Shown: positions 3,915 to 46,792 of the stretch, one piece after another | Position numbering within the stretch: position 1 is the first letter of the stretch | How the letters are laid out: every line of letters starts with the position of its first letter | Source: a bacterium UBP8_UBA817 | GTDB lineage: Bacteria > Margulisbacteria > Marinamargulisbacteria > SXXA01 > SICP01 | DNA length: 64,000 bases | Direction: 5' to 3' | Assembly: GCA_945898045.1 (NCBI GenBank) | Contig: CAMDGG010000002.1 | Location: 19,231 to 83,230, forward strand | Position numbers and translations under genes: made by a program | Notes under the pieces: generated by a model | Seen by the model: the letters and a program-made list of their open reading frames with translations, nothing else | Told to the model about the DNA's origin: nothing | Database searches by the model: none

Positions 3915-4028
3915 ATTAATTTCTAGAGTATCAAAAATAACACGGAACTGGCCAGTTCAGATTTACAAGTACATAAAAGTATAGTAAAAAAAGGGGACAT
4001 ATTTTTCACTGAACGGAGGAGTCTCAAC

Positions 4029-6636: not shown

Positions 6637-6639
6637 CCC

Positions 6640-7774: not shown

Positions 7775-7776
7775 TC

Positions 7777-9914: not shown

Positions 9915-9917
9915 AGC

Positions 9918-11174: not shown

Positions 11175-11246
11175 TCAAGGGTGACATGCCCCATAAATTC
11201 CGTTAAAATGACCGAACCTGTTCGAAAAATCCAAGGAGAGCTTTAA

Positions 11247-11792
11247 ATGAGCATCAAGCTAGGCCTCGTCGGTAAAAATGGCGCAGGGAAATCAGCAGTC
11301 TGTAACTACCTCCTGGAACACGACTTCACCTGTTTTTCACTCTCCAATATTGTCCGTGATGAAGCCCACAAAAAAGGCCTCCCTCTCACTAGAGACAATT
11401 TAGTAAGCACCGCAAATATACTCAAAGAAGAAAAAGGTGCTGCATTTTTGGCCATTCAAAGCAACGAAAAAGCGACGGGAAATAAAATTGTTTTTGACAG
11501 CATCCGAAATGTAGATGAGGTAGATTATCTCAGAAATAAAAACGTCATTCTGATCGGCATCGATGCACCTATTGAACTACGCTATCAACGTATACAACAA
11601 AGAGCCCACGGAACAGATCATGTTGATTTTGAAACCTTCAAAACACAAGACGAACGAGAAAATTCTGGAATCAGCAGCGGACAAAATATCAACGCCGCCC
11701 TCGAGCACTGCACCTATCACCTTGAAAATATCGGCGATCTTACTGCCCTTCAACACCAAGTACAGGAAATCCTAAATCAATGCCAAGATTAA
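11247..11792 (+). CDS. P-loop nucleotide/nucleoside kinase (dephospho-CoA-kinase or AAA_17-like)
   Basis: Walker A GLVGKNGAGKSAV. Small size, 181 aa. Confidence 0.5.
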   Translation: MSIKLGLVGKNGAGKSAVCNYLLEHDFTCFSLSNIVRDEAHKKGLPLTRDNLVSTANILKEEKGAAFLAIQSNEKATGNKIVFDSIRNVDEVDYLRNKNVILIGIDAPIELRYQRIQQRAHGTDHVDFETFKTQDERENSGISSGQNINAALEHCTYHLENIGDLTALQHQVQEILNQCQD

Positions 11793-21587: not shown

Positions 21588-24227
21588 ATGCAAACCGAAA
21601 TCAAAATCACTGGCGCCAAAGTCCATAACCTCAAAAACGTTTCTTTAACGATTCCAAGAAACGCACTCGTAGTGTTCACGGGCCTTTCTGGATCTGGCAA
21701 ATCTTCTCTTGCATTCGATACAATTTACGCTGAAGGCCAACGTCGTTACATGGAATCTCTCTCAGCATACGCCCGACAGTTTTTACACCAACTCGACAAA
21801 CCCGACGTCGACCATATTGAAGGCCTTTCTCCAGCTATTTCCATCGACCAAAAAGCAGCCTCTCACAACCCTCGGTCTACTGTCGCCACCATCACAGAAA
21901 TCTATGATTACTTCCGGCTGCTATTCGCCAACATCGGCAAACCGCACTGCCCCATCTGTGACGCAGAGATTAAAAGCCAATCCGTACAAGAAATCGTAGA
22001 CCAAATCACACACTGGCCCAAAGACACCCAGATTTTACTCCTCGCCCCCTGCATCAGCGAAAAAAAAGGAACCCACAAAGAACTCCTAGATCAACTCAAC
22101 AAAGACGGCTTCACCCGTGTCCGAATCAACGGAGAAATCAAACGACTTAGCGAACCCATTATCTTGGACAAAAACAATAAACACACGTTAGAAATTGTAG
22201 TAGACCGACTGAGCATCACAGATGAAAACCAAAGTCGTCTCAGTGAATCGATTGAAACCTGTCTGCGCTACACAGAAGGGACTATAAAAGTAGAAAATAC
22301 AGATACCGGCACACAACAACTTTTTTCCGAACACCTCGCCTGCCCCAACGGCCACATGAGTTACGCCGAAATTTCACACCGCCTTTTCTCATTTAATTCT
22401 CCTGTTGGAGCCTGTACAGAATGCAAAGGCCTCGGCGACTCTTTAGACTTCGATGTCGATCTCGTCAGAAAAAATGCGAGCAATCTCAAACGATTTCTCT
22501 TTGTCCGACATATTGGCGACAATTTAGACAGCTTAATCGCCGCACTCAGACGCCGCTACCATCAAACAGAATCCGAAAAAGTCCGCTTATTTTTCAGAAA
22601 TTACATGACCTCCAAACCCTGCGACACCTGCCAAGGCCAACGCTTAAAGCCAGAAGTCCTCGCTATCAGAATCGCCGACAAAAACATCGCGCAACTCACC
22701 CATCTTAGCGTGCGAGACCTCATCCCCTTTTTCCAAACCTTAAAGCTCACCGAAAAAGAACAACAAATATCCAATCAAATACTAAAAGAAATCACCGCCC
22801 GTCTCTCATTTTTAAATAACGTCGGCCTCAACTATCTCACCCTCAGCAGACGCTCAGGCTCCCTCTCAGGCGGAGAATATCAACGCATACGGCTCGCCAC
22901 ACAAATTGGCGCAGGACTCACTGGCGTTTTGTACGTCTTAGATGAACCCAGTATCGGTCTCCATCAACGAGATAATCTACGTCTCATCGAAACCCTCATT
23001 CGACTTCGCGATCTCGGCAACACCCTCATCGTCGTTGAGCACGACGAAGACACCATACAAAAAGCAGACTACGTCGTCGACATCGGCCCTGGCGCCGGAA
23101 AAGCAGGCGGAAACGTGGTCTTTGCAGGCACCGTCCCAGAACTTCTAACCGATCCCAATTCCATCACAGGCGCCTACCTCACTGGTAAAAAGAAAATAGA
23201 CATCCCCAAAAAACGCCGTCCCATCACCCCAGAAAAAGCCATAAAAATCACAGGTGCACGCGAAAATAATCTTAAAAATATCGACGTCACATTCCCGCTC
23301 AGTGTCCTCACCGCCATCACCGGCGTATCAGGTTCCGGAAAAAGCACCCTCATTCACGACATCCTCCACAAAAGCATCATGCGCCATTTCCATAACAGCA
23401 AAGAACGCCCCGGACTTCACGACGACATCCAAGGCCTAGACCATATCGACAAACTCATCACCATCGACCAATCTCCCATCGGACGCACCCCCCGATCCAA
23501 TCCCGTCACCTACACGGACGCTTTCACGCCCATCCGGGACTTATTCGCCCAAACCAACGAAGCCAAAATACGAGGCTTCAAACCAGGCCGATTTAGCTTC
23601 AACGTCAAAGGAGGCCGCTGCGAAGCCTGCGAAGGCGATGGCCTCATCAAAATCGAAATGCACTTCTTATCCGACGTCTACGTCACCTGCGACATCTGCA
23701 AAGGCAAACGCTACAACCCCGAAACCCTCACCGTCAAATTCAAAGGCCACACCATTGCAGACGTCCTCAACATGACCGTCACAGAAGCCCTAGACCTCTT
23801 CACCAACATCCCGCAAATTAAAAACAAACTCAAAACCATACAAGAAGTAGGCCTCGGCTACATCCAACTCGGCCAAAATGCCACCACCCTCTCCGGCGGC
23901 GAAGCCCAACGCATCAAACTCGCCAAAGAACTCAGCAAACGCAGCACCGGAAAAACCCTCTACCTCCTAGACGAACCCACCACCGGCCTCCACTTCGAAG
24001 ACATCCGCAAACTGCTCGAAGTCCTCAACAAACTCGTCGACACCGGCAACACCATCATCGTCATCGAACACAACCTAGACGTCATCAAAACAGCAGACCA
24101 CATCATTGACCTAGGCCCAGACGGCGGCGACGCAGGCGGCCAACTCATCGCCCAAGGCACCCCCGAACAAATCGCCAAAGTAAAAACATCTTACACAGGA
24201 CAATTTCTTAAAAATTCCCTCAAATAA
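21588..24227 (+). CDS. uvrA: Excinuclease ABC subunit A
   Basis: Two ABC modules ([10 protein letters not shown] and [10 protein letters not shown]), LSGGE signature motifs, zinc-finger cysteines. Confidence 0.95.
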
Positions 24228-28548: not shown

Positions 28549-28953
28549 TGGGGGTGTATTTGGCTTCGACGGGATAGATCTAAGATATGAGACGCGAGCC
28601 GAGGAGATGCCAGGCCTCGTAAAAAGGCATAAAAAAAATAGTTAACACAACTAAATTAGGTAAAACTCTAGCTTTTGATTTCGCACCAGCGAGGTTGGCA
28701 GCCTAGAAACCAAGCCACAGCCGCTTAATTAAGCAGCTGCGCCGTCCTCAAAGTCGTTGACGCTTTGAAAGACGCAACCAGTCAACTAGCCACTAGGTTT
28801 TGATCTCGGCCTAAGTAGCGAAATCAAGAAATCTCGCGATTAAACGCCTCGTTTTCAAGACGCTTAATCGTTAAATCAACTGAAAACTACGCTCGTAGTT
28901 GCCTCTTATCAAAGCTATTTCGGACACCGGTTCGATTCCGGTCACCTCCACCA
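28549..28953 (+). ncRNA. ssrA: tmRNA (SsrA)
   Basis: 5' end GGGGGTGTATTTGGCTTCGACGGG. 3' tRNA-like end GGACACCGGTTCGATTCCGGTCACCTCCACCA with a G3:U70 wobble pair in the acceptor stem. Internal tag reading frame GCT TTT GAT TTC GCA CCA GCG AGG TTG GCA GCC TAG, which would encode AFDFAPARLAA*. Confidence 0.9.
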
Positions 28954-28962
28954 TAATCCAAA

Positions 28963-29814
28963 CTAGCCCAAGATATTTTCTTGTTGATTTTGCAATTTCA
29001 AAATAGCTTTCGCATTTAATGCCGTAACCACTTTTTTACCGGTCTTAGCCTCCAATTCCTTCCGGGCCACCTTCGCAACATTTCCACCTTGTTTCGCCAC
29101 GATTTTACTCTCTTCAAAATCCTTTGGATTGACTACCGCCGAAATATCTTTGGTGGATGCTTCTGCAAGCATATTTAAAATCAGTTCGGTGTTCGTCATG
29201 TTATCCCGGAGATTTTCCTTCTTCAAACCTTTCAGTGCCCTATAGTCTTTAGTAGTTTTATCGGCCCATGCTTTGGTTATAATATCGGTGAGCGTTGCAA
29301 ACTGAACACCCTCCTTCAGACCTCGTTTTTTCCATTCATTTGTAAGTTCTTTACGTATCTCAATACTTTTCAGCCGTTGATTAATCCAGCTTTCAGAATA
29401 CCCCAATTGCAAATACTGCTCTAAAGCACGATCGATACTCAGTTCTGGATCTTGCATCTCATCTAGTCTTTCAGACGCTACTTGTGCAAGCCATAGTTTA
29501 AAGGGCTCAGCTTTGGGCGATGGGATAGATTGTATAAGGCGGAAAAGTTGTTCTGTGTCGGCAACATCGGTCATCCGCATTTTGCCATCAGGGGCCTTCA
29601 TTTTCAAACCGTTACAATTTGTAACGGTTTCATTCCCCTCATCCTTTAATCGCTTTTTTAACACCCGCCAATACACCTGAGGATTTGGGCTTTCTGTTAA
29701 TACGAAAATCACATCCACAACGGACAAATACCATTTTTCCTGATCAGCATCCCATAGCGTTCTTACTTTTTTGTCTTCAAATATTTTTATATCGTTTTCT
29801 TTTTTCATATTCAA
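28963..29814 (-). CDS. DinD-like (DNA-damage-inducible protein D family) protein with an N-terminal Bro-N-type domain
   Basis: IKIFEDKKVRTLWDADQEKWYLSVVDVIFVLT (Bro-N-like). KGLKKENLRDNMTNTELILNMLAEAST parallels E. coli DinD RKGLKKNQKILDHMGSTELAANLF. Size 283 aa versus 274 aa for DinD. Confidence 0.7.
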   Translation of the reverse strand: MNMKKENDIKIFEDKKVRTLWDADQEKWYLSVVDVIFVLTESPNPQVYWRVLKKRLKDEGNETVTNCNGLKMKAPDGKMRMTDVADTEQLFRLIQSIPSPKAEPFKLWLAQVASERLDEMQDPELSIDRALEQYLQLGYSESWINQRLKSIEIRKELTNEWKKRGLKEGVQFATLTDIITKAWADKTTKDYRALKGLKKENLRDNMTNTELILNMLAEASTKDISAVVNPKDFEESKIVAKQGGNVAKVARKELEAKTGKKVVTALNAKAILKLQNQQENILG

Positions 29815-30828
29815 TTACAAATTCCTTAACAGTTCATCAAAATCACTACTACTATTTTGAATTTGCTCCAAATGAAATAAATCATATTCTTTCTCCGCCA
29901 ACGCAATAGCTACATCATGAGAAACCTTTCCGCTATCTTGTAATATATCCTGCTCATTAAATTTCAAAAAAGAATCCATCTTTTCTGCCCAATCATTCAT
30001 CGTCATCACCTGACGATTTTGAGCCTGAAATTCTGCAAAATCCAGATACATCGTCACAATGCGATTAAGCTGATCTAATTCACTAGCCGTCAAATAATTT
30101 TTAGCGATGCCCACATCCGCTTTTCGTATCATACCCTTCGGCGAATTTTTCCAATTCGTGAGCCCCATATTTTCTTTTTCACGATCTACACGATCATAAA
30201 TTAGCTCAGCAGCCGTTTGCCCCGTAATAGCAAAATGCAATTTATTTTGAACCGTCGCAAAAAACTGCTGCGTTATTTCATGGTTCGGGTCATAGTCGGA
30301 ACTACACTTGGCATAAATATCCGTAATCTTCTGATAAAACCGCCGTTCACTAGACCGAACATCACGTATTCTCGCCAACTGCTCGTCAAAATAGTCTTTT
30401 CCAAAAGGTTGATTAGGATTTTTAAGGCGCTCATCATCCATCGTAAATCCTTTGATAATATATTCCTTGAGCCGCTCCGTTGCCCATATACGAAACAAAG
30501 TAGCATTCCGAGAATTTACCCGATACCCAACCGAAATAATGGCATCGAGATTGTAGCATTCTATTTGCCTAGTAACAGTTCTCAAGCCCTCTTGTTGAAC
30601 TTGTGCAAAATTTGCACAAGTTGAATCCCTAGCCAATTCTTCGGCTAAATAAATATTTTTTAGATGCTTGGTCACCACACTTCTGTCTACAGCAAACAAA
30701 GTTGCAATCTGAGACTGAGTTAGCCATAAAGTTTCATTATAAAGATGAATTTCTACATTCACCTTTCCATTCGGAGTTGTATAAAATAAAAAATTTTTGA
30801 TCACACCATAAGAACTAATATTTGTCAT
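29815..30828 (-). CDS. RhuM-family protein (virulence protein RhuM / PF13310-like)
   Basis: YNLDAIISVGYRVNS...FRIWATERLKEYIIKGFTMDDERLK is the hallmark RhuM block. 337 aa, as in Salmonella RhuM. Confidence 0.75.
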   Translation of the reverse strand: MTNISSYGVIKNFLFYTTPNGKVNVEIHLYNETLWLTQSQIATLFAVDRSVVTKHLKNIYLAEELARDSTCANFAQVQQEGLRTVTRQIECYNLDAIISVGYRVNSRNATLFRIWATERLKEYIIKGFTMDDERLKNPNQPFGKDYFDEQLARIRDVRSSERRFYQKITDIYAKCSSDYDPNHEITQQFFATVQNKLHFAITGQTAAELIYDRVDREKENMGLTNWKNSPKGMIRKADVGIAKNYLTASELDQLNRIVTMYLDFAEFQAQNRQVMTMNDWAEKMDSFLKFNEQDILQDSGKVSHDVAIALAEKEYDLFHLEQIQNSSSDFDELLRNL

Positions 30829-31940
30829 AAAATCATCAAGCCACGATGAATTTTATTACCAGTCAGCGTTTCAGAAATATCACTTAATCCGGTCTTAAAA
30901 TCCATTTCTAAATACTCAAATACACTAATCGCACCTGGGCCCAACAAAGATTCAAAACGTTTCTTCACCTGACCAGAATTATCGGGATTATAAACCAAAA
31001 ATTTTCTCAAGAGCCTATCCCCAGCTGTACCTAATCCAAACAAATGTTTAAAAAATGAATCTGTTTCTGGGAGCGAAAATCCAATAACAACTATATATTC
31101 AGCTTTCCCCAATTCATCTGCAGCTTTTTTCCAAATAGTAGACAAAGAATTGTGATAACCCGACTTATTCCATGTAGGCGGAACAATAAAAGACGTAGGG
31201 CTTTGCTTCACAGAACGTTCACTAAAATTATTGGTTAATTTTTCACTAAGAATCAAAGGTCCGTTTCGTCCGATATTATCCCAACTATTAAAATCTTTTT
31301 TGGCATCACTTAAAAAATCTGCCACCTGATATACCTTCACCTCAGATTTTTGACTTACCCAATTCAAAGAACCATGAAGTTTAAATAAATTACAAAATTT
31401 AGACTTTTTAATATTTGAATCAAACCCATAATAAGGAGTTAAATCTGAATTCTGTAAAGCAATATCAAGAGCAACATCATAATTAAAAGTCAATATGGAT
31501 GATTCAAAGTTATACTTATTAAGGTTCTTTAATAATTCCACAAATCCACCGTAACTCCCAGAAGAGGAAAATACACCCGAATTATCTATAGAAAATAAAA
31601 TTGATTGTTCAAGAGTTGAGACTATAACTCTCACAAGAGAGGCTATCAGCTTCTTAATATCTTTCTGTGGATAATCTGGCAACTTGTTGATTAATTGAGA
31701 AAACTCAAAAAGAGTATAAATAGACTCAATATTATTCAAATCCAGTAGTGATTTAGAATGAATTTTTTGAAGCTTTTGGATAGCAAAAAAAACTTGTTCA
31801 AATTCTATCCTGTACTTTTCCACTTTTCCTTCTAACAATAAATCTCTAGATACATTCAAAAAATCTTTCATGAGAGGCGCACCACAATCTTGAGATGCTC
31901 CCGCACCTAAAATAAAAACTATTTTCTTAGTTGCTGACAT
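30825..31940 (-). CDS. SIR2-like (SIR2_2/DUF4020-type) domain protein with a ~170 aa uncharacterised C-terminal region. Candidate NAD+-depleting defence effector.
   Basis: KKIVFILGAGASQDCGAPLMKDF (GAGxS motif), LTFNYDVALDIAL, FKLHGSLNW. Overlaps both neighbours (ATGA at 30825-30828; 14 nt overlap at 31927-31940). Confidence 0.7.
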   Translation of the reverse strand: MSATKKIVFILGAGASQDCGAPLMKDFLNVSRDLLLEGKVEKYRIEFEQVFFAIQKLQKIHSKSLLDLNNIESIYTLFEFSQLINKLPDYPQKDIKKLIASLVRVIVSTLEQSILFSIDNSGVFSSSGSYGGFVELLKNLNKYNFESSILTFNYDVALDIALQNSDLTPYYGFDSNIKKSKFCNLFKLHGSLNWVSQKSEVKVYQVADFLSDAKKDFNSWDNIGRNGPLILSEKLTNNFSERSVKQSPTSFIVPPTWNKSGYHNSLSTIWKKAADELGKAEYIVVIGFSLPETDSFFKHLFGLGTAGDRLLRKFLVYNPDNSGQVKKRFESLLGPGAISVFEYLEMDFKTGLSDISETLTGNKIHRGLMIL

Positions 31941-32307
31941 TTTTAATCCCCCCTAGCAAAAAATACGGCGAAATGAATCTGAGTAATTGTATAGCCTCAT
32001 AAGAATTAACCCGATAGCCAACGGCAATGATGGCATCAAGATTATAGAAATTGGTTTGGTAGGTTTTTCCGTCTTCGGCAGTATGCGCAAAAATTGCACT
32101 AACTGAATCTCCGCTTAATTCTTCCTCTGAAAAGATGTTTTTAAGGTGCTTTGTGATAACAGTACGATCAACGCCAAACAACTCGGCCATCTTTTTCTGA
32201 GACAACCAAATCGTTTCATCCTGAAAAACTACCTCAACCTTAACCTCTCCCTTTGGAGAGGTATACATCAAAAACTGAGATTCAACAGGCAGTAAATCTT
32301 TATCCAA
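31927..32307 (-). pseudogene. Truncated RhuM-family N-terminal domain paralog (126 aa). It either reads into or was replaced by the SIR2-like gene.
   Basis: About 60% identical to the N-terminus of the 29815-30828 protein (FLMYTSPKGEVKVEV...YNLDAIIAVGYRVNS) and lacks the C-terminal two-thirds. Confidence 0.6.
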
Positions 32308-32395: not shown

Positions 32396-33178
32396 TTACT
32401 CTTCCTCATGAGACCCAGCTGGCACAAGCCCCGTCCCCAAAACATACGTTCCGGTTAAATAGGGATACACCAACGGGGCAAAATAGAGCGCTTTTGCTAT
32501 GCCTTCTTGATTAAATGCTTTGGGCTTACTCCCAAATCCAAACCCCACATGAAACGCTATATCAGGCACATCCGCATATTCACGTCGGTTGTGTGAAACA
32601 GGCGATCGTATATAAGACAATGTTAATTTAGTATCCAAGGTAACAAAATAAATATCGTTATCCCAAACCAGGCGCTCATAATTAAACTGTATCGTTGGCC
32701 CCCCCAAATAAAACCCCGTCAAGCCCTTTTGAAAGAAAAGGGGACGCCCTGCTATTTGTACATCGGGATGTGCATAGGCAACCCCAAGTCCAAACCTAAA
32801 CCGATCATCCCCATACCGCTTCCCAAAATTGTAATACAACAAATTATATCCATCACTAATACTTAAATAAGTCACAATATCATTGGTATTAGCCAAATAA
32901 ACTTTATGGTGAATTAATTCAAATCCCTGCCCATTTTCTCCATGCCAATCTTCTAGTCGAAAAATCCACCAGTGAGAATCTGAAAATGATTTATTTTGAT
33001 AAACTGCATTAATAGATTGATCCGGTAAATCTTCTAATTTTATTGTTAAGCGATTAGGAAGACTCATCGATCCGCCCATAAACGTAGACAAGTGCCAACC
33101 ATCTTGGTTCTCAGAAAAAACACTTCCAGAAATCAAGAAAAATAACGCCAAAATAATCCCTCGCAATTGCAACCTCAT
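32396..33178 (-). CDS. Hypothetical outer-membrane or secreted beta-rich protein
   Basis: Signal peptide MRLQLRGIILALFFLISGSVFS; aromatic- and Gly-rich beta-strand pattern. Confidence 0.4.
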   Translation of the reverse strand: MRLQLRGIILALFFLISGSVFSENQDGWHLSTFMGGSMSLPNRLTIKLEDLPDQSINAVYQNKSFSDSHWWIFRLEDWHGENGQGFELIHHKVYLANTNDIVTYLSISDGYNLLYYNFGKRYGDDRFRFGLGVAYAHPDVQIAGRPLFFQKGLTGFYLGGPTIQFNYERLVWDNDIYFVTLDTKLTLSYIRSPVSHNRREYADVPDIAFHVGFGFGSKPKAFNQEGIAKALYFAPLVYPYLTGTYVLGTGLVPAGSHEEE

Positions 33179-33191
33179 ACATTACTCCTTA

Positions 33192-34055
33192 TCAAATTTT
33201 ATTAAGTTCCAGCCAACGGTCTACTTTATGTAAATACCGCGTCATTAAAAGTGAAATCCCCCGAGGTTCATTACCATTTCCATGAACCAAAACCACGCTG
33301 CCATTCTTAGGAACTTCACCCTTCGCAAGCCAGGCATCACTACCCAACGCAATTAAGTGCAAGTCACGCAACTTTACCTTTAAAATATCAGAGGAAATCA
33401 GTCCTGGAAATCGAAAAAAAACAGACGGCACAATACCTACCGCCAACATCTGCTGCTCATTTTTCAAAACCTCGTCTTCCAAGACAATACCCGAACTTCG
33501 CATAAAATCAGGCTTCACCGGATGGCTCAAAGAATGATTCACCCACGTCACACGCACTCTTCCCTCCGACGCCTGACGCTTAAGCCACACCAAATCTTCC
33601 GCATGTTGAGACAACCACACCCCAGTCACAGCTATCGCCATAGGAATAGGCGCTTCAGAACTCGGCAACTGCGTAATCACCTCCCGCACAAAAGGTTTCT
33701 TACTCGGACACAAATCCACAGTCAAAAATAATCCATTCACCGAAGACCCCGAATGCCGAACTTCACCAGAAGAAACCAATCGCATAAAACGGGACTGCGA
33801 AACACGTTTCTCAGACACTTTTTTAGACAAAAACAGATCAATCTCTGTCGCCATTTTCACCTCTGTCTCGAGAGTATCTGGCGAGACAATTAAATATTCA
33901 GGATGTCCATCTTGCTCGAACGATCTCAGCGCAATGTGAAGCTGACCATTGGCATCGTTAAATGGAATGAAGATAGGTTTATAGCTAGAAATCTGAGAAG
34001 CAAAAGAAATCCCGCAAAAGAATATAGAAATTACACAGACGCTTCTAAAAATCAT
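33192..34055 (-). CDS. Secreted CE4/NodB-type polysaccharide deacetylase-like protein with a degenerate motif 1
   Basis: NodB motifs: TVDLC (where TFDDG is expected), HSLSHP, FRFPG, LGSDAWL and VVLVHGN. Signal peptide. Confidence 0.5.
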   Translation of the reverse strand: MIFRSVCVISIFFCGISFASQISSYKPIFIPFNDANGQLHIALRSFEQDGHPEYLIVSPDTLETEVKMATEIDLFLSKKVSEKRVSQSRFMRLVSSGEVRHSGSSVNGLFLTVDLCPSKKPFVREVITQLPSSEAPIPMAIAVTGVWLSQHAEDLVWLKRQASEGRVRVTWVNHSLSHPVKPDFMRSSGIVLEDEVLKNEQQMLAVGIVPSVFFRFPGLISSDILKVKLRDLHLIALGSDAWLAKGEVPKNGSVVLVHGNGNEPRGISLLMTRYLHKVDRWLELNKI

Positions 34056-34059
34056 CGAA

Positions 34060-35439
34060 TTACAACCGCATCATAAGCGCATCATATTCGATATGTGCTT
34101 TTTTTAATTCCAATGTGTACTTTAAGTTATCAATTTTGGCTTTTGTTAGATTCTGCTCACGAATATTCAAGATAAACATGTCGCTATCCCCATGTAGGAA
34201 TTTCTTTTGTTCTGCTACAACCATTTTTTGCGCAACTTCTATTTCTAAGTTGCTATTTTTGACGGTTTTTTCTGCCGTTAAAATACGTTCATGCACTATA
34301 GCCAAGTCTTGCTTGAGCTGATCAATAATCAGAGACGTTTTGAGCGACAGCTGTCGTTTCTTACTGTCTAGCGCATCTCGCTTTGCACCTTTTTCTCTAC
34401 GTTCGATGGGCGTTGAAATACTCAGCTTAACTTTGCCCTCATCCTGCAAACTACCACTTCCATTACCAGAATCCGAAGAATACTCATAACTTAAATCAAC
34501 CGCTGGCAAATTCTGATTTTCATACAACGCGATCTCATTTTGAAGTTGCTTTATCTGTGTGTCTAAATCAAAAAGAAAGGGATGGATATCAAGCAACTGG
34601 ACAATATCTTGCGTAGGTTGAATCGGGTAACGCAGTGCGTAATCTTGTGTATCAGGGATGGTGTAATGATTACACGACGTAACAAGTCCCTCTGGATCTC
34701 GCACATAAAGCGCTAACATGCGCTTCTGAATTTCTAAATCTCGATCTGCTTCCATTAATTGATTTTGACGTTGTAACAAATATTGCAAATTTTCAATGAG
34801 ATAAATGTCCGGCAAGTCCCCTTTTTTGACCCGCGCCTTAATGATCTCTTGGCGTTTATTGGCCAGCTCGTACAATCCAACATATTCCATTTTCAACTGA
34901 TACGCATAGATCCAAGTCCAATACTCTTTTGATGCTTTTTGCAGAACAGATTGCACAACAAAGCGCTGTTGTTGGTATTGGTTCACTAGATCTAGCTCTG
35001 CATTAGTCAAAGTGGTTCGCTTGGCATCTATCCAGCTATCACGTAGCACAGAGAGAGAAATGCCCAATCCAGTTTCTCCACGGCTTCGGGTGTTGAATTG
35101 GTCTTCATATGTCGGGAATGTCCCGCTTGATTGCCTATAGTGTCCATATACTTTTGCATTAGCAAAATAAAGTGGTTTTTCTATTGAGGCTTTGCCATAT
35201 TGACCCGTGTAATATCCTTCGGTTCGGCTGGCATTTTCGTATTTTATTTTTGTATCAAATTGTCCTGCAGCACTTTGTTGTTCGAAACGTCGTTGTTCAA
35301 TGGCTTCTGTAGCCGACAAAACGCTTGGAAAGTGTCTCATTACCGAGTCTTTCACATCCTTTTCGTATAATACAGTTTGTGCAGAAAGTGTTGAAATGCA
35401 TAGACAAACGATGATTAAAACAAAAAAAAGTGACTTCAT
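34060..35439 (-). CDS. TolC-family outer membrane efflux protein
   Basis: Signal peptide, two repeated coiled-coil/beta-barrel halves, 459 aa. Confidence 0.75.
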   Translation of the reverse strand: MKSLFFVLIIVCLCISTLSAQTVLYEKDVKDSVMRHFPSVLSATEAIEQRRFEQQSAAGQFDTKIKYENASRTEGYYTGQYGKASIEKPLYFANAKVYGHYRQSSGTFPTYEDQFNTRSRGETGLGISLSVLRDSWIDAKRTTLTNAELDLVNQYQQQRFVVQSVLQKASKEYWTWIYAYQLKMEYVGLYELANKRQEIIKARVKKGDLPDIYLIENLQYLLQRQNQLMEADRDLEIQKRMLALYVRDPEGLVTSCNHYTIPDTQDYALRYPIQPTQDIVQLLDIHPFLFDLDTQIKQLQNEIALYENQNLPAVDLSYEYSSDSGNGSGSLQDEGKVKLSISTPIERREKGAKRDALDSKKRQLSLKTSLIIDQLKQDLAIVHERILTAEKTVKNSNLEIEVAQKMVVAEQKKFLHGDSDMFILNIREQNLTKAKIDNLKYTLELKKAHIEYDALMMRL

Positions 35440-36539
35440 TTAAATTTTATCTTTTTTTTCACAACTTCTTTGTCGTCTGAATGGTGAGAAACCTCAGGCA
35501 AGGGTGGGAAATTATTAAGTTTTCGCCAGATTTCGTATCCCGTACTAACCTGATTAAGCAATACCCAACCAGACGCCTGTGCGCCTACACGCAAATATTG
35601 GGAATCTGGCCAAGCGTTATCTTCCTTATCCGGGATAACAATAATGCGTAATTTACCGTTTTCAGAAATAAATTGATCAACAATTTTTACGACGCCTCCG
35701 AATGTATTAATAGCAGTAGACGGCCAACCGCTAAATTGAATAGCGGGCCATCCTTCAAATTGCAACCGCACTTTTCTACCAGGGTAAACCAGACGCATAT
35801 CATTTGGATCAATATACATTTCTACAGCTGGCCGAACTAAAATAGGTACAAAAGTTGCAATAGACTGCCCCTCTTTAATGCGTGCAGACAAACTACTAAA
35901 TTGAGCAATATAAATAAATCCATCTTGTGGCGCCGTAATAATCTGTGTGTTTTGCCGAGACAATTTGACTTCGGCTTGCGCTAATTTAGCCGCAGATTCG
36001 GATTGTTTTGCGCGCACTTCTTCTAATTTTATTCTGGATTCTTCGAACGTTTTTCTTGAGCTAATTCCCTCTTCAAATAATTTCTTTTGCCGATTGAAAT
36101 TGAGTTGCGCCGTTTGTGTCACAATTGCCAGCGATTCATACTGTTCACGAAAAGAATCTCTTTCCTGAAGAATACGCTCTATTAATTCCGGGTCATTATC
36201 TAGAATCTCAACAAGTTTTTGGCCTTTTTTTACAGCTTGCCCATCTATGACGTACCACTCTTTTATGCGGCCACTCACCAGAGCCGTGATTTGTGTCTGC
36301 CGCTCATTGGGACTAAAAGCAATTAAACGACCTTTCCCATAGGAAGTTTGAAACCACGGGGTTAATACCGTAAATAAGCTAAGCAACAAAAAAATGATGA
36401 GCAAATACTTAATAGATTTCATATATGGCGGGCGTTCTGTATAGTCGTTTAACAATGAGAAATAACGCAGAGTGCTCGGCTCGAATTCGATATCATGGAT
36501 ATCTGGGAATTCTGACTTATGATTGGATGTATGCATCAT
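35436..36539 (-). CDS. HlyD-family membrane fusion (periplasmic adaptor) protein
   Basis: N-terminal transmembrane segment, long coiled-coil, HlyD-like lipoyl and beta-barrel regions. Translationally coupled to the tolC-like gene. Confidence 0.75.
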   Translation of the reverse strand: MMHTSNHKSEFPDIHDIEFEPSTLRYFSLLNDYTERPPYMKSIKYLLIIFLLLSLFTVLTPWFQTSYGKGRLIAFSPNERQTQITALVSGRIKEWYVIDGQAVKKGQKLVEILDNDPELIERILQERDSFREQYESLAIVTQTAQLNFNRQKKLFEEGISSRKTFEESRIKLEEVRAKQSESAAKLAQAEVKLSRQNTQIITAPQDGFIYIAQFSSLSARIKEGQSIATFVPILVRPAVEMYIDPNDMRLVYPGRKVRLQFEGWPAIQFSGWPSTAINTFGGVVKIVDQFISENGKLRIIVIPDKEDNAWPDSQYLRVGAQASGWVLLNQVSTGYEIWRKLNNFPPLPEVSHHSDDKEVVKKKIKFK

Positions 36540-38205
36540 AGGACTTCCTGTCTTCCAAGAGTTTTAATCCGGCTTGATCACATGCCATATAATGGTCAAA
36601 TAAGTAGGCATCATGATAGGTATTACTAAAGTAAATCAGGGTAATATCAGGGTTAGAGTCTAAGTGCGCAAAGAGTGCTTTGTTGTGAAGCGCCGCAAAG
36701 CTAATATGATGGTTCATCATAATGTATTTGGACTTATTGAGTATGGCTCGGCCTAACTTTAAGAGAACCAATTCTCGGTGGGTAAGAGGAGATCCATTAG
36801 AATCCAGCACCGTATCAACCCCATCTTCTAGTTGGGTAATCGTATCCATAATTCCCACTCGGGTCAGTATTTCTGTGATTTTAATCGTATCCGGATCTTC
36901 TAATCCATAAGATAGATATTCTTTGATACTCAGATTTAGAATCTCTGACTCGTCGATAATAGAAATACCTTGCCTATAATAATGGATATCGATGTCATCA
37001 AGCAGTTCATTATTAACACTAACCACACCTTTTTCCGGAGCATAGAATCCCATTAAGCTACCAATAAGAAGATTTTTATATTCTCTTTGGACTGTTGCAA
37101 TCAGTGTTCGAGATCCTTTTTTAAACGTGTGATTTATTTCTATCTCTTCATTAAAGAGAGCGAATTTAGCACCTTTATACGCTATCGTTTCTGGAACCAA
37201 AATCATGCGTCCCGTCATGTCTTGTTCTATATCAAATCGATAAAACGAGATCAATTTTTCACAAGACGCCTGTAAGTCATAAAAACTTCCCAGATAGGAA
37301 CCTGATTTTGCAAGATTTGCAAAGATAGATGAAAAAATAATTTCAGTGGCAACAAGTTGTCCCAACGACAATTGCCCATTGAGCACAAAATATCCAGAAA
37401 TAAACAATAAAATAGAGTTTCCTAAAACATATAACCCAAGAAGATAACAAATTTGTGAAAAGAGATGTTTAAAATGATTCTTTCGTGCATCGATATAATA
37501 ACCAGTAAGGGTATTCGACCGTTTGGTTGCGTAGTTTTTCATTTGTTTTGATTTAAATAAGAGATGATTTCTGCCCATATCCAACAACCAATCTGCGGTT
37601 TGATACTTTTGATCAGATTCGTCAATAGCATAGGCAATCGCTTGCTTCGAATGTCCTTTCCAGATTGCGTACAAAATGAGCAAAACAATACAATTGAAAA
37701 GTAAAAATACAGGATGATAAAACGAGGTCAGTATCACACCGGCTAAAATCTGAAGTGCCAGTGAATATCCACCGATCAGTACATAAGGAAGCGATTTATC
37801 AATTGAGATAATTTCAAAAAATTTCTGCATCAGAGTCGTTCTGTTGATGCCCTGCAATGCAGCATATTTGGCATAAACCACTCGGGTCGTCATCAACGCC
37901 ACAATGCGTGCAAAGAACCGTCTACGAAATACTTCCGCGATATATTCTTGAATGCCATACGACACCGCAGACAACGTTAAGATCACCAACAAAACAACCG
38001 ATACAGTAATAAGCCGCTGCAAGACCCCAACGTTGGCAATCGAGTTGATTAACGCCTGTATCGATAAAGGCAGTATAAGACTAAGTACCGTAACCACTGC
38101 ACCGTACACAAAAAGGAGAAAGTAATAGTTTTTTTCTGGGCCAAGAATAATACCCAGAACACTTTTATAGTTAATGAGAGATAATTTCTTCATTTTCAAA
38201 AGCAC
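36517..38205 (-). CDS. ABC-exporter-like protein (type I secretion HlyB-like transmembrane domain) with a fully degenerate, presumably non-catalytic nucleotide-binding domain
   Basis: Six-TM exporter transmembrane domain. NBD-like C-terminus in which Walker A, the signature motif (LTHRE where LSGGQ is expected), Walker B (IMMNHH where ILLDE is expected) and the H-loop are all lost. Confidence 0.6.
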   Translation of the reverse strand: MLLKMKKLSLINYKSVLGIILGPEKNYYFLLFVYGAVVTVLSLILPLSIQALINSIANVGVLQRLITVSVVLLVILTLSAVSYGIQEYIAEVFRRRFFARIVALMTTRVVYAKYAALQGINRTTLMQKFFEIISIDKSLPYVLIGGYSLALQILAGVILTSFYHPVFLLFNCIVLLILYAIWKGHSKQAIAYAIDESDQKYQTADWLLDMGRNHLLFKSKQMKNYATKRSNTLTGYYIDARKNHFKHLFSQICYLLGLYVLGNSILLFISGYFVLNGQLSLGQLVATEIIFSSIFANLAKSGSYLGSFYDLQASCEKLISFYRFDIEQDMTGRMILVPETIAYKGAKFALFNEEIEINHTFKKGSRTLIATVQREYKNLLIGSLMGFYAPEKGVVSVNNELLDDIDIHYYRQGISIIDESEILNLSIKEYLSYGLEDPDTIKITEILTRVGIMDTITQLEDGVDTVLDSNGSPLTHRELVLLKLGRAILNKSKYIMMNHHISFAALHNKALFAHLDSNPDITLIYFSNTYHDAYLFDHYMACDQAGLKLLEDRKSYDAYIQS

Positions 38206-38263
38206 ATTCTAACAAATTCCTTTCATCTTGTGGATTCTAATTACAATTACGATATTAAAGTGT

Positions 38264-38535
38264 ATTAAGTCCCTAGTAGTGGTCTACTGTATGTGAATAC
38301 CGTGTCATTAAAAGTGAAATCACACTACCCTTCTTAGGCACTTCCCCCTTCGCAAGCCAGGCATCGCTACCCAACGCAATTACTCAGCATGACCATCTTG
38401 CTCGAACGATCTTAGTGCGATGTGAAGTTGGCCATGAACATCATTAAATGAAAGAAAGATAGGTTTATAGTTAAAAATCTGATCAGAAAAAGAATATAGA
38501 AATTACACAGAAGATTCTAAAAATCATCGAATTAC
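38264..38535 (-). pseudogene. Internally deleted copy (3' end joined to 5' end) of the CE4 deacetylase-like gene at 33192-34055
   Basis: 38264-38400 aligns to 33203-33355, and 38395-38535 aligns to 33899-34058, at roughly 85-90% identity. About 540 bp of the interior is missing. Confidence 0.75.
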
Positions 38536-40603: not shown

Positions 40604-41527
40604 CGAAAGATGCTGCTTAATCCAAGCTTGCCCTTCCTCAATAGTATGAAATTCACCCGCAATCTGAGCCGCATAAATCTGTTTCAAAAGCGTCCCCATT
40701 TCTGAACCCGCCTTCACACCTAAGGCCTGCAAATCTCTCCCTAAAATAATCGGCTTAGGTTTCTTAGACGCTTCTACTTTTCTAGCAATCGAAGACGGCA
40801 TACCAAAATGAGCTACCATCATACCCAGCACATCATTCGGATAATCAGCCAATCGCACGATGCCCAATTTTTCTGCCGCAAAAAGCCCCAAAACGGGCTT
40901 CTTGGAAAGCAAAATCATCTTCCGAGTCTCCGCCCATTTGCGATCATTTGAAATATCTTCTAATGAAAGGGAGCTGCACAACGCGACTGTCTCGGGTGCA
41001 ATATCCAGTTCAAATCGGGCCGAAAATTGCATTGCCCGAAACACCCTCAGGGGGTCTTCTGAAAATCGAGGCCCCACATGCCGAAAGAACCGTCTCTCCA
41101 AGTCATTCCGGCCCCCAAACGGATCCAAAAACTCACCCGTTTCCATCACAAATCCCATGGCATTCATCGTAAAATCCCGACGCGACGCCGCCTCTTCAAA
41201 AGACATATCCCCATCTGCTTCAACTTCAAAATCCACATGCTTCTTGCCAGTTTTACGTTCTCTGCGTGGCAATGAAAAATCAATCTCCAGACCATCCACT
41301 TTCATTTTCACAACAGAAAAAAAGGCCCCCACCAAATTCACCTTTCCAAAAGCAGCCAAAATCCGAACCAGTTCGTCATAAGAAGCAATCCCAAAAACTT
41401 CTACATCAAAATCAGTAACAGGTATTCCCAACAACGAATCTCGAACACACCCGCCCACTAAAACAGCACGCCCCCCTAATTTATGAATTGCTTGTGAGAT
41501 TTTGGCTAAGCTTTCAGGAAAAATCAC
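40598..41527 (-). CDS. cca: CCA-adding tRNA nucleotidyltransferase (minimal class II head and neck)
   Basis: GGCVRDSLLGIPVTDFDVEVFG and the RRDFTMNAM motif. Confidence 0.8.
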   Translation of the reverse strand: MIFPESLAKISQAIHKLGGRAVLVGGCVRDSLLGIPVTDFDVEVFGIASYDELVRILAAFGKVNLVGAFFSVVKMKVDGLEIDFSLPRRERKTGKKHVDFEVEADGDMSFEEAASRRDFTMNAMGFVMETGEFLDPFGGRNDLERRFFRHVGPRFSEDPLRVFRAMQFSARFELDIAPETVALCSSLSLEDISNDRKWAETRKMILLSKKPVLGLFAAEKLGIVRLADYPNDVLGMMVAHFGMPSSIARKVEASKKPKPIILGRDLQALGVKAGSEMGTLLKQIYAAQIAGEFHTIEEGQAWIKQHLSL

Positions 41528-42687
41528 AATAACCCTTCATGCAACCAAGAGACGAGCGACCGAATTTTGACTCCATTAGGATATGATTTTTCTCGATTAC
41601 ACTCCAAAACCAACTGCACTCGATTAGGAACCTCAATTTTATTCTCAAAATAAGAAAACTGGGAACTCAAATTCATATCAGCATATTTTACTTCAAATAA
41701 TGAATGAGGCACTTGATTCATAACTACTAGAAAATCGATTTCCTTGCCCTCTTTAGTACGAAGAAAATGTAAACTCCCCTTTATGCCTTTCGTATCTCTC
41801 AAAAAAGAAAGATCTCGATAGAGAGATAAAGCAACCAAATTTTCAAGTTTAGCCCCTTCAGAATTAGGAAAATCAACACGGCAATAGTCATAAAAATAAT
41901 ATTTAGAATCTTTTAAAATGGCCCTCGCAACATTCTTAGAATAAGGAGTCACACGAAAAATAATATACAAATTCTCCAAAAGCTGAAGCCATCTCTTCAC
42001 TGTATTGGCATCACATTCCAAATCACGAGCCAAATTGCTATAAGAAACCGTTGAACCTACCCTGCGAGACAACAACTCAATCAATAACTCAATTTTTTTA
42101 ATATCTCGAATCGTCGCCAAATCAATCAAATCTTCTCGCAAAATCACATCCAGATGACTCTGCTTCCACCGATCATAAAAAACTTTATCTCCATTCAAAA
42201 AAGGTTCTGGAAATCCACTACACTCCCACAATCGACGAAACGCTTCTTTAGGTTCAAACAAAACCAAGGCTTCTTTAAAATCAACAGGAAATAAACTGTA
42301 CTGAAAAAAACGACCCGCCAAAGAATCCCCTACTTTTTTGTACGTATCTAATTTGGCGCTTCCAGTCACAAGCCATCGAGGAGGAATACCCTGCACATCA
42401 TAAATACCTTTTAGCCATCTCTTCCAAGAATCCATTTTATGAACTTCATCCAATATGACCAAAGAACTATCACGACGCCAAGATGCTTCCTTGAGGGCTA
42501 TACGATCAGGCGCATAATCATAGTTAAAATAATCCGCATTAGGATAAAGACCCCGAGCCAACGTCGTTTTACCTGATTGCCTTGGACCAGAAAGCAAAAC
42601 AATTTTTGTTTCTAAGTCAGTCAAAATATACGAAACTAGGGATCGATTCATTAACGACCATTCTGACATAAATTCCGTTTTAGTCAA
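41524..42687 (-). CDS. COG1373-type AAA+ ATPase (AAA_14 plus DUF4143), paralog of 24290-25528
   Basis: Walker A SGPRQSGKTT and Walker B LVILDEVH. Translationally coupled (ATGA) to cca. Confidence 0.7.
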   Translation of the reverse strand: MTKTEFMSEWSLMNRSLVSYILTDLETKIVLLSGPRQSGKTTLARGLYPNADYFNYDYAPDRIALKEASWRRDSSLVILDEVHKMDSWKRWLKGIYDVQGIPPRWLVTGSAKLDTYKKVGDSLAGRFFQYSLFPVDFKEALVLFEPKEAFRRLWECSGFPEPFLNGDKVFYDRWKQSHLDVILREDLIDLATIRDIKKIELLIELLSRRVGSTVSYSNLARDLECDANTVKRWLQLLENLYIIFRVTPYSKNVARAILKDSKYYFYDYCRVDFPNSEGAKLENLVALSLYRDLSFLRDTKGIKGSLHFLRTKEGKEIDFLVVMNQVPHSLFEVKYADMNLSSQFSYFENKIEVPNRVQLVLECNREKSYPNGVKIRSLVSWLHEGLL

Positions 42688-46728: not shown

Positions 46729-46792
46729 CGCGCTATGATAAGTGCAAAGTGCCCAATACACAAGAAATGCCCTAAATGATAGAATCAACTTT

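Follow-up and report, generated by a model that had tools for sequence, protein, structure and literature searches.

A tripartite exporter cassette with an ABC subunit that has lost the catalytic motifs of its nucleotide-binding domain

Among the closest described systems to the cassette reported here are the HlyB-HlyD-TolC exporters and their kin (LssB, PrtD and PCAT-type), with which it shares three components and their gene order. As in type I secretion, its adaptor carries an N-terminal TM anchor and its duct belongs to the OEP family. In ABC proteins a composite ATP site is built from the Walker A, Walker B and H-loop of one nucleotide-binding domain (NBD) and the signature of the other. 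In TM287/288, TmrAB, BmrCD and Rv1273c/72c, one chain departs from consensus at the Walker B Glu, the H-loop His and the signature, departures that the ABC component of our cassette shares; in these heterodimers Walker A is kept, ATP is bound at both sites and one site is fully competent. In known heterodimers neither chain lacks Walker A, and the two genes form an adjacent pair (PMC12038006). SbmA/BacA (SLiPT) has an ABC-exporter-like membrane domain that works without an NBD and is driven by the proton gradient, and since NBD-containing relatives exist, primary transport has there given way to secondary transport, as would be the case in our cassette (PMC8442886, PMC13316013). CFTR and SUR likewise have the ABC exporter fold, their degenerate NBD sites serving gating or regulation and not transport energy. 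Finally, the RND pump AcrAB-TolC and the MFS pump EmrAB-TolC join a PMF-driven secondary transporter to an adaptor and a TolC-family duct, the arrangement that we propose for the present cassette, whose inner-membrane component differs from theirs in having the ABC fold.

Layout of the cassette and its surroundings

The cassette occupies positions 34060-38205 of the window, the whole 64-kb stretch of DNA that was analysed, and lies on the minus strand, as do all features given below. It comprises an ABC-exporter-like gene (ABC*), an HlyD-type periplasmic adaptor (MFP) and a TolC-family outer-membrane factor (OMF), as the preliminary description had recognized, and the three reading frames overlap or abut. 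ABC* (36517..38205) encodes 562 aa from a GTG at 38205; its true start is likely the ATG at 38193, for a protein of 558 aa, which is the start called in a 99%-identical contig and matched by an ortholog of 72% identity. MFP (35436..36539; 367 aa), identified from Pfam, NCBIfam and hydropathy, overlaps the 3' end of ABC* by 23 nt at its start. Its matches to HlyD_3 (37.6 bits, cut-off 22.2) and Biotin_lipoyl_2 (34.7 bits, cut-off 29.8), along with a single N-terminal TM anchor predicted by hydropathy at aa 45-63, place it among the HlyD/MFP adaptors, and its C-terminus carries a conserved motif, FEGWPxxQFSGWPS. This short protein reaches no NCBIfam subfamily cut-off, the RND_mfp model scoring better than type_I_hlyD. 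OMF (34060..35439; 459 aa), which has a signal peptide and a 4-nt overlap (ATGA) with the MFP stop, matches Pfam OEP (PF02321) in two stretches at 68.8 bits (cut-off 22) and is thus a TolC/OEP protein. Hence an ABC gene, an adaptor gene and a duct gene stand in one operon, the layout of a tripartite ABC or type I secretion system.

The NCBIfam models nearest to the family are those of LssB, HlyB and NHLP bacteriocin exporters. Nevertheless, ABC* falls far under the cut-offs for HlyB (TIGR01846; 32.7 bits against 725.55), PrtD (TIGR01842; 30.9 against 510.15) and LssB (TIGR03375; 42.5 against 693.1), and is by this measure a member of none of these subfamilies. Unlike exporters of the HlyB kind, it lacks the ATPase motifs and has no N-terminal C39 or CLD domain. 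No gene for an RTX-like or leader-peptide substrate is evident adjoining the cassette, and no fourth gene is conserved in the 80 best loci that emerged when GTDB species genomes were scanned.

Two co-oriented, tightly packed genes follow the cassette, as previously reported. The nearer (33192..34055; 287 aa) encodes a CE4-like secreted protein and would, judging by position, be co-transcribed; its assignment is weak (Pfam Polysacc_deac_1 at 16.3 bits, below the cut-off of 23.1) and it has no PDB sequence match. HSLSH and LVH-like motifs can be picked out in it by eye. The farther (32396..33178; 260 aa) encodes a secreted OMP-like protein of unassigned family. Both are absent from the locus of the 72% ortholog and from all 80 best loci, a comparison that marks them as lineage-specific neighbours outside the conserved cassette. 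A second CE4-like copy, broken and internally deleted, was read from the sequence and its repeats immediately 5' of ABC* (38253..38535); four repeat families here have 81-96% identity to 33190-34063, so that direct repeats of the CE4-like gene bracket the cassette. It seems that recombination brought the cassette into this genome beside the CE4-like gene.

Fold and motifs of the ABC subunit

The AF2 model of ABC* (pLDDT 83, pTM 0.70) bears out the six-TM exporter domain proposed in the preliminary description. The transmembrane domain (TMD; 37240..38169, aa 13-322) consists of six long helices (aa 13-58, 62-110, 122-161, 165-212, 220-275 and 281-322) with two short coupling helices (aa 114-118 and 214-217). 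Foldseek aligns the model over some 550-570 columns to TmrB, HlyB, TM287/288 and PCAT1 with TMq of 0.82-0.87, the values for HlyB (8dck_A) and TmrB being 0.87 and 0.85; PCAT1 is among the top matches. ABC* therefore has the type IV (type I exporter) fold of the ABC transporter superfamily. Family-invariant residues of the TMD are P46/Q50, Y163-H164-P165, S197, K200, Q251, G282-Q-L-V-A-x-E288 and Y309.

The C-terminal region (36520..37215, aa 331-562) is still folded as an NBD but none of the catalytic motifs is left, a reading based on AF2, PDB alignments, Pfam and substitution rates; we refer to it as the pseudo-NBD. The fold is confident, with block pLDDT of 79-94 over most of aa 331-562 and a dip to 61 at about aa 501-510. 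In the AF2 model the would-be P-loop is cut to two residues between a strand (aa 366-371) and a helix (aa 374-384).

The motif register was set by three independent alignments, namely full-length ABC* to TM287 (3qf4_A), the C-terminal domain to P-gp and BSEP, and a 121-sequence MSA that included Walker-A-positive relatives; coordinates were confirmed by translation. Opposite Walker A (GxxGxGK[ST]) stands TVQREYKN (37072..37095, aa 371-378), in which the lysine is retained and every glycine of the glycine-rich loop, together with the Ser/Thr, is gone. The Q-loop Gln is replaced by Asp (D418; 36952..36954), LTHRE (36772..36786, L474 to E478) occupies the position of LSGGQ, YIMMNH (36709..36726, aa 494-499) that of Walker B, with N498 for the Asp and H499 for the catalytic Glu, and the H-loop His is replaced by Asn (N528; 36622..36624). 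The replacements read in the preliminary description are thus upheld by the alignments; its reservation that motifs might be shifted, or domain boundaries misplaced, is answered by AF2, Foldseek and the alignments, according to which the motifs are lost, not shifted, and the boundaries are sound. Consistent with this, ABC* scores 18.4 bits against Pfam ABC_tran, under the cut-off of 25, and matches profile positions 26-131 only, the Walker A part lying outside. With none of the five catalytic motifs of ABC ATPases in place, ABC* would be unable to hydrolyse ATP by itself, as had been proposed. A Pfam search found no known ligand-binding motif or domain in the pseudo-NBD.

Distribution of the family, selection and NBD-free forms

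Cassettes of the same kind occur in hundreds of bacterial species, and the best 80 loci belong mostly to Alpha- and Gammaproteobacteria plus Myxococcota. An MFP gene follows ABC* in all 80 and an OMF gene in 78, one of the exceptions being a contig end, so that the order ABC*-adaptor-duct is kept in 78 of 80. Beyond these three genes no neighbour is conserved across the 80 loci; in about 20 of them a LysR-type regulator gene lies directly upstream. We found no published literature on this exporter family.

Motif loss, too, runs through the family. Throughout the best 80 loci the Walker A columns are non-Gly; the Q-loop-equivalent position is Asp in 69, the Walker B Asp is present in two and the H-loop His in five, and the signature equivalent, with the family consensus L-[ST]-x-x-E, ends in Glu in 69. 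At the position that corresponds to the D-loop, an Asp is conserved in most of the family (pattern ...F/Y-D). Of 119 relatives from the databases whose TMD is near-complete, 71 lack Walker A, and a tree built on the TMD alone puts all but six of these 71 in a single clade. In a search of 1.84 billion proteins, the best 146 matches included 78 short representatives, of which 66 are without G-x4-GK[ST]. The clade that shows the motif loss is large and takes in all of the best 80 loci, and the loss is ancestral to it as a whole.

The nearest P-loop-positive relatives occupy the same ABC-MFP-OMF cassette. Among 47 of them, the catalytic Glu is found in 15, the H-loop His in 16, the Q-loop Gln in one and LSGGQ in none, so that erosion of the catalytic motifs is already visible in them. 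The TMD is nearly unchanged between the dead clade and these cousins. W182 and Y259 alone set the dead-NBD clade apart, and comparison of the TMD columns revealed no new acidic or proton-relay residue that distinguishes it. The invariant polar residues H164, K200, Q251 and E288 are found in the cousins too; most are placed at the periplasmic face, and they might act in docking of the adaptor or in the exit of substrate, and not in proton coupling.

Among members of less than 50% overall identity, the TMD is 32-49% identical against 16-28% for the NBD-like domain, the reverse of conservation in normal ABC proteins. The pseudo-NBD compared with that of the 72% ortholog gives a dN of 0.25 against saturated synonymous sites (pS 0.79), and the dead domain is thus under purifying selection. 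A 99%-identical strain copy of ABC* has six synonymous and five non-synonymous differences and no frameshift.

Natural variants free of the NBD nest inside the dead clade in the TMD-only tree, either as a TMD-adaptor fusion or as a stand-alone TMD, the pseudo-NBD having been deleted in at least two sub-lineages. In the fusion protein P0108, aa 23-323 align to the TMD (38% identity) and aa 361-664 to MFP (51%), the halves being joined via some 20 linker residues and the adaptor TM anchor; only an OMF gene follows. The Azomonas protein P0119 is a stand-alone TMD whose gene is followed by MFP and OMF genes.

Energisation of the complex

We give about an even chance to the reading that the locus is a working member of a family of ATPase-dead tripartite exporters, probably secondary ones driven by PMF or a gradient. 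An ABC-type inner-membrane dimer, presumably a homodimer with two dead sites, would be joined to the HlyD-type adaptor and the TolC-type duct, its NBD having turned into a non-catalytic pseudo-NBD. The functional core would be the membrane domain with adaptor and duct, and ATP hydrolysis by the own subunit would go unused. Energy would, by analogy, most likely come from PMF or a substrate gradient, with the membrane domain alternating between inward- and outward-facing states in the manner of SbmA and passing substrate to the adaptor and the TolC duct. Since the 230-aa pseudo-NBD is folded and has been retained under selection in most members, it should do something, possibly binding a partner or ligand; it may persist in the cytoplasm as a module for dimerisation or gating that docks on the coupling helices. 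Against PMF coupling stands that the dead clade has no new acidic or proton-relay residue relative to its cousins, and that both have the invariant polar residues. The likeness to SbmA has its bounds. SbmA is an importer that acts alone, whereas ABC* has an adaptor and a duct; unlike SbmA, most of the family keep a folded pseudo-NBD, and PMF coupling is something that we infer for them. ABC* has no match to the SbmA_BacA Pfam model at E<=0.01 and lies outside that group.

Alternatively, ABC* may be the silent half of a heterodimeric exporter, or may recruit a separate NBD protein, ATPase activity coming from a partner encoded elsewhere in the genome; it would then be an extreme case of TM287/288 or TmrAB. 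We regard this as unlikely. Its best PDB sequence match, TM287, does belong to a heterodimeric exporter in which one site is degenerate, and with its NBD fold and the D-loop-equivalent Asp of most members the pseudo-NBD could still pair. However, since two NBDs contribute to each composite site, the signature on one side and Walker A, Walker B and H-loop on the other, a dead NBD would cripple both, and ABC*, having neither Walker A nor signature, would leave both defective. Known heterodimers differ in keeping Walker A and in their paired genes; ABC* lacks all of the motifs and has no adjacent partner in the window, which sets it outside this class. A Walker-A-positive ABC-like ORF lies within 10 kb in six of the 80 loci, directly adjacent in one (L073) and 1 kb upstream in another (L080), but 74 have no such ORF, the six are not homologous in position, and the neighbours at L073 and L080 have no more than a remote relation to the family (20 bits, or no match, against the query). 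No such partner ORF occurs in the 64-kb window, and the partner ATPase envisaged in the preliminary description thus finds no support. Moreover, the fusion and stand-alone forms that lack an NBD still keep adaptor and duct.

An ATPase-dead exporter is also to be weighed against a complex that is not energised at all, that is, a gated passive conduit or scaffold across the envelope, or a sensor whose pseudo-NBD binds another ligand or protein to gate the TMD, as in CFTR or SUR. Purifying selection on the dead domain suggests a non-catalytic job, the upstream LysR-type gene in about 20 loci suggests conditional use, and the near-constancy of the TMD between the dead clade and its P-loop-positive cousins would also suit such a complex. 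We nevertheless consider it doubtful: several lineages dispense with the pseudo-NBD, so ligand gating is not essential to the core function, the domain is devoid of recognizable ligand-binding motifs, and a cell would presumably pay dearly for an open passage between its cytoplasm and the exterior. CFTR and SUR, moreover, are eukaryotic proteins in which ATP is still bound and one nucleotide site remains competent or regulatory, and nothing suggests a channel or regulator function of their type for ABC*. Nor is there evidence for the regulatory decoy once suggested; fixed operon linkage to its own adaptor and duct argues that ABC* is the working inner-membrane component.

Another earlier suggestion, that of decay, with ABC* a pseudogene and its operon dying, is for practical purposes refuted: every catalytic motif is lost and the adjoining broken gene copy tells of rearrangement in the region, but the 562-codon frame is intact and translationally coupled by overlaps to the MFP and OMF genes, dN is far under the saturated dS, the strain copy has no frameshift, gene order holds in 78 of 80 loci, the motif-less state is shared clade-wide and across phyla, and the AF2 fold is confident.

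Taken together, our findings are best explained by a family of tripartite envelope exporters that is large and conserved yet has so far gone uncharacterised, and the pumps of which probably run without ATP hydrolysis of their own.

A tripartite cassette with a motif-less ABC component

In our ORF calls the window's minus strand carries a tight group of five genes. The gene for the ABC-exporter-like protein (ABC*; 36517..38205, minus strand) overlaps by 23 nt that of a HlyD-type adaptor (35436..36539, minus strand), which in turn shares an ATGA overlap with the gene for a TolC-family outer-membrane factor, the duct (34060..35439, minus strand). They are accompanied by a weakly assigned CE4-like gene (33192..34055, minus strand) and by the gene for OMP260, a secreted protein of a family without a name (32396..33178, minus strand). 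The real start of ABC* is probably the ATG at 38193, because a 99%-identical strain contig (L081) has its start called there and a 72%-identical ortholog opens with the same MKKLSL. Promoter and terminator scans between 32000 and 39600 returned sites not above shuffled-sequence level, and the sole Rfam match was a tmRNA, with no riboswitch upstream of the cassette operon.

Pfam recognises the duct (OEP, 68.8 bits against a cut-off of 22) as well as the adaptor (HlyD_3, 37.6 bits; Biotin_lipoyl_2, 34.7 bits), while ABC* matches ABC_tran at 18.4 bits, under the cut-off of 25 and over profile positions 26-131 only. No NCBIfam model reached its curated cut-off for ABC*, for one of its Walker-A-less relatives (the dead clade) or for three of its nearest P-loop-positive relatives (the cousins), and for ABC* itself no curated model came near its cut-off.

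The motif register of the nucleotide-binding domain (NBD) was set by a full-length HMMER alignment of ABC* to TM287, by aligning its last 232 aa with P-gp and BSEP, and by a 121-sequence MAFFT alignment that included relatives with intact Walker A; all three gave the same result. Walker A (GxxGxGK[ST]) is replaced by T371-VQREYK-N378, the Q-loop Gln by D418, the LSGGQ signature by L474-THR-E478, Walker B (hhhhDE) by YIMM-N498-H499 and the H-loop His by N528. Modelling of ABC* with AF2 from a family alignment of 35 sequences gave a confident structure (mean pLDDT 83, pTM 0.70) with six long transmembrane helices, a pair of coupling helices and an alpha/beta domain of NBD type, the last with block pLDDT values of 79-94 over most of its length and one dip to 61 near residues 501-510. 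In this model just two residues of P-loop remain, connecting strand 366-371 with helix 374-384. Foldseek comparison with the PDB gave TMq values of 0.87 for HlyB (8dck_A), 0.85 for TmrB and 0.82-0.83 for TM287/288 and PCAT1. ABC* therefore combines an intact exporter-fold membrane domain with a cytoplasmic domain that is folded yet motif-less. The preliminary description, of an exporter membrane domain followed by an NBD-like region with its motifs lost, is right in every particular, since three independent alignments and the predicted fold agree: the motifs are replaced rather than shifted and the domain boundaries are sound, which rules out a misplaced register.

By architecture and fold, the nearest known systems are the tripartite ABC exporters of the HlyB-HlyD-TolC type I secretion kind. 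Unlike these, ABC* lacks the ATPase motifs, falls below every curated sequence cut-off and has neither a C39 nor a CLD domain, and nearby there is no evident gene for a substrate. The system also differs from the heterodimeric degenerate-site exporters, which retain Walker A and one competent site and are encoded as pairs.

Conservation and selection across the family

Motif loss is not confined to the window. A search of 5.8 billion proteins yielded 166 relatives of ABC*, the best 120 of which were aligned with the query. Walker A is absent from 71 of the 119 aligned sequences with a near-complete membrane domain; these include the close relatives (30-72% identity, 550-600 aa), which also lack the remaining motifs and have in common a degenerate consensus consisting of a Q-loop Asp, L-[ST]-x-x-E, hhhh-[NST] and F-[ST]-N. 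A scan of GTDB, with one genome per species, recovered at least 554 relatives. The best 80 of these loci, from Alphaproteobacteria, Gammaproteobacteria, Myxococcota and assorted MAGs, have non-glycine residues at the Walker-A-equivalent columns; the Walker-B Asp is present in 2/80 and the H-loop His in 5/80, and the final Glu of the degenerate signature in 69/80. Linkage to the export partners is obligate: the adaptor gene lies 3' of the ABC* gene in all 80 loci and the duct gene is found in 78, one of the exceptions being a contig end. Beyond adaptor and duct, no conserved neighbour, such as might point to a substrate, occurs among these 80 loci, where only shadow ORFs and lineage-specific synteny appear; some 20 of them have the gene for a LysR-type regulator upstream.

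The conservation pattern is the reverse of that in ordinary ABC proteins. Among members less than 50% identical to the query overall, the transmembrane domain (TMD) is 32-49% identical and the NBD-like domain 16-28%. Comparison of the NBD-like domain with the 72% ortholog gave a dN of 0.25 against saturated synonymous sites (pS 0.79), and the 99%-identical strain variant differs by six synonymous and five non-synonymous changes with no frameshift. The domain is thus relaxed, yet clearly selected, and the earlier proposal of a decaying system, or of a pseudogene, is refuted by this constraint together with the absence of frameshifts and the family-wide nature of the motif loss. We consider it very probable that the locus is a functional member of a conserved ATPase-dead family. 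The window's own clade (P0001-P0004) is only 30-40% identical to proteobacterial members, and its divergence goes further at the position equivalent to the D-loop, with HHIS where the family has ...FD.

Members of this family have been deposited under generic names, either 'ABC transporter ATP-binding protein' or 'ABC transporter transmembrane domain-containing protein', as at SARO_RS19820-19810 on plasmid pNL2 of Novosphingobium aromaticivorans DSM 12444. Such annotations call for caution, as genes labelled ATP-binding lack every canonical motif for binding ATP. Full-text searching, with most subscription journals outside its coverage, found no literature on a tripartite ABC family with dead NBDs, and the accessible portions of a 2021 Chem Rev review of tripartite systems make no mention of one.

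Flanks, neighbours and possible cassette mobility

The conserved cassette does not include the CE4-like and OMP260 genes, which are lacking both at the best 80 loci and at that of the 72% ortholog (L082) and were rejected as working parts on that ground; no structural or sequence relatives of either were found in the PDB. A second CE4-like copy, broken and internally deleted, lies just 5' of the ABC* gene at 38253-38535, consisting of four pieces with 81-96% identity to parts of 33190-34063 and with the middle ~540 nt gone. The window cassette is therefore bracketed by CE4-like direct repeats, which look like a scar left by a tandem duplication or by single-crossover recombination that inserted the cassette. 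A comparable arrangement occurs in Azomonas macrocytogenes (GCA_014191985.1, L087), where a cassette whose ABC component has no NBD (6001-9514) sits between duplicated acetyl-CoA hydrolase and ETF-QO genes. This direct duplication of ~2 kb (3443-5490 and 9649-12070) has 73-90% identity, and the upstream ETF-QO copy is broken. The same bracketing in both organisms suggests a common way of cassette movement; single-crossover (Campbell-type) integration of a circular donor with a homologous flank would yield exactly such an arrangement.

In L082 (8284-11683) the cassette begins 30 nt past co-oriented znuA-like and ABC-3 permease genes, beside which no ATPase gene was called, with MerC and NikR_C genes upstream; a 366-aa neighbour has no annotation and no Pfam match. 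These neighbours could reflect a metal-related role or coincidence, and examination of the idea brought no further support.

Several other features of the window deserve record. LeuC is 67-74% identical to MAG proteins of Candidatus Margulisiibacteriota and Marinamargulisbacteria and has an identical copy in an NCBI assembly. A diderm envelope is plausible given lpxB and other LPS genes nearby. Directly upstream of lpxB, an apparent FabZ-LpxA fusion is encoded on the plus strand (~46742-48034, a position inferred from ORF order; 1661-2902 in L081), its ~413-aa product having Pfam matches to a FabA/FabZ-type dehydratase and a hexapeptide/LpxA-type acyltransferase. An AAA_14/DUF4143 ATPase gene (41524-42687), between a PolyA_pol-family gene and leuC, is missing from the 99%-identical contig and so represents a strain-level insertion or deletion. 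Within 28550-32307, the tmRNA gene (28550-28953, plus strand; Rfam 158 bits) precedes a small island of genes for Bro-N (28963-29814), RhuM (29815-30828), a weak SIR2-like protein (30825-31940) and a truncated N-terminal piece of RhuM (31927-32307), whereas L081 has other genes at ssrA (Bro-N, RhuM and a Schlafen/AlbA_2-HATPase protein); the island is variable and possibly defence-related. The tag called by ARAGORN, APSSKSLTL*, lacks the usual hydrophobic Ala-Ala-type tail, so its frame may be mis-called or the lineage unusual.

The proposed energy source and loss of the nucleotide-binding domain

In a neighbour-joining tree built on TMD columns only, the Walker-A-less proteins of 550-600 aa form one clade and relatives that keep the P-loop another. 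The genes of these cousins lie in the same ABC-adaptor-duct cassette, and their motifs are themselves eroded: among 47, the P-loop and the Walker-B Asp are each kept in 41, the catalytic Glu in 15, the H-loop His in 16, the Q-loop Gln in one and LSGGQ in none. P-loop-positive relatives (P0057-P0120, P0294-P0386) are mostly without Q-loop Gln, catalytic Glu and H-loop His and often carry an N-terminal extension of ~170-220 extra aa, a domain with no Pfam match in the long cousins although some deposited names read 'peptidase domain-containing'. When the best 146 representatives of the 5,878 clusters found at E<=1e-30 in a profile search of 1.84 billion proteins were typed, G-x4-GK[ST] was absent from 66 of the 78 short and 17 of the 68 long proteins.

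Proteins without any NBD nest inside the dead clade. In P0108 a TMD matching that of the query (residues 23-323, 38% identity) is fused to a counterpart of the window adaptor (361-664, 51% identity) through a ~20-residue linker and the adaptor's own transmembrane anchor, and at its locus the fusion gene is accompanied by nothing but an OMF-sized gene. The predicted topology is self-consistent, with six transmembrane helices and then a seventh taking the adaptor to the periplasm. P0119, from A. macrocytogenes, is a stand-alone 367-aa TMD, its gene followed by those of adaptor and duct. Evolution has therefore deleted the NBD at least twice while keeping the cassette, and the cytoplasmic domain is dispensable in some lineages.

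It is possible that the pseudo-NBD has been re-purposed for sensing or gating; the NBD-less forms imply that such a role cannot be essential to core function. It is also possible that a partner ATPase, encoded elsewhere in the genome, acts in trans. In ABC heterodimers one NBD contributes Walker A, Walker B and H-loop to each composite site and the opposite NBD the signature; a companion such as ABC*, lacking both kinds of element, would leave both sites crippled. The existence of NBD-less forms likewise argues against a partner. Within the window no partner ABC was found: the only other ORF with two Walker A motifs (21588..24227, 879 aa) matches an exporter-NBD profile in four weak separate stretches and is taken to be UvrA-like by its size and two P-loops. 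No neighbouring ATPase is conserved across the 64-kb window and the best 80 loci. The preliminary reading stands as regards a dead ATPase, its motifs replaced; of the partner that it listed as one possibility no sign was seen there, and the system is not decaying. The locus belongs to a conserved family of tripartite ABC-type exporters in which the ATPase does not work and is sometimes missing altogether.

We propose that the functional core would be a TMD dimer with adaptor and duct, to which ABC* would supply no ATP hydrolysis. The ABC-type TMD would alternate access, with the energy taken from the proton-motive force or from the gradient of the substrate itself, and the pseudo-NBD may hold the coupling helices as a clamp for dimerisation or gating; an X-loop-equivalent stretch and structural Gly/Pro residues (G364, G393, G471, P473, L474) are conserved in it. 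SbmA offers a precedent, as a proton-driven transporter that alternates access without an NBD (PMC8442886, PMC13316013). The working mode proposed for ABC* is alike, but ABC* lies outside the SbmA family and exports through a duct. The invariant polar residues (P46/Q50, Y163-H164-P165, G282-QLVA-x-E288), which the cousins have too, are concentrated at the periplasmic face and may have their role in adaptor docking or an exit gate rather than in proton coupling. New charged transmembrane residues specific to the clade were sought as a proton relay and none was found, W182 and Y259 being the only dead-clade-specific residues; no newly evolved relay was seen in the dead clade relative to the cousins. 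A secondary-transport mechanism specifically is put forward with reserve, at somewhat under an even chance.

The relatives can be read as a transition series, from eroded P-loop-positive cousins, through the folded pseudo-NBD of the window locus, to proteins in which the NBD is deleted and the TMD either stands alone or is joined to the adaptor. A new energetic class of tripartite exporter, in which an ABC-derived TMD has switched from ATP to a proton or substrate gradient while keeping adaptor and TolC duct, with the intermediates of the transition preserved, is a tentative proposal that we think rather doubtful than probable. If true, it would be the exporter counterpart of SbmA. Tripartite pumps are classed by energy source, ABC systems using ATP and RND and MFS systems the proton-motive force; a widespread ABC-type cassette lacking an ATPase, in places by outright deletion, breaks this classification. 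Carriers include the cultivable and genetically tractable Novosphingobium aromaticivorans DSM 12444 (pNL2), Xanthomonas pisi, Alteromonas and Erythrobacter, and the NBD-less form is carried by the cultivable A. macrocytogenes, so the question of ATPase-free export is directly testable. The family provides a natural series in which to ask what roles NBDs play beyond hydrolysis, and how an ABC TMD may cycle without one.
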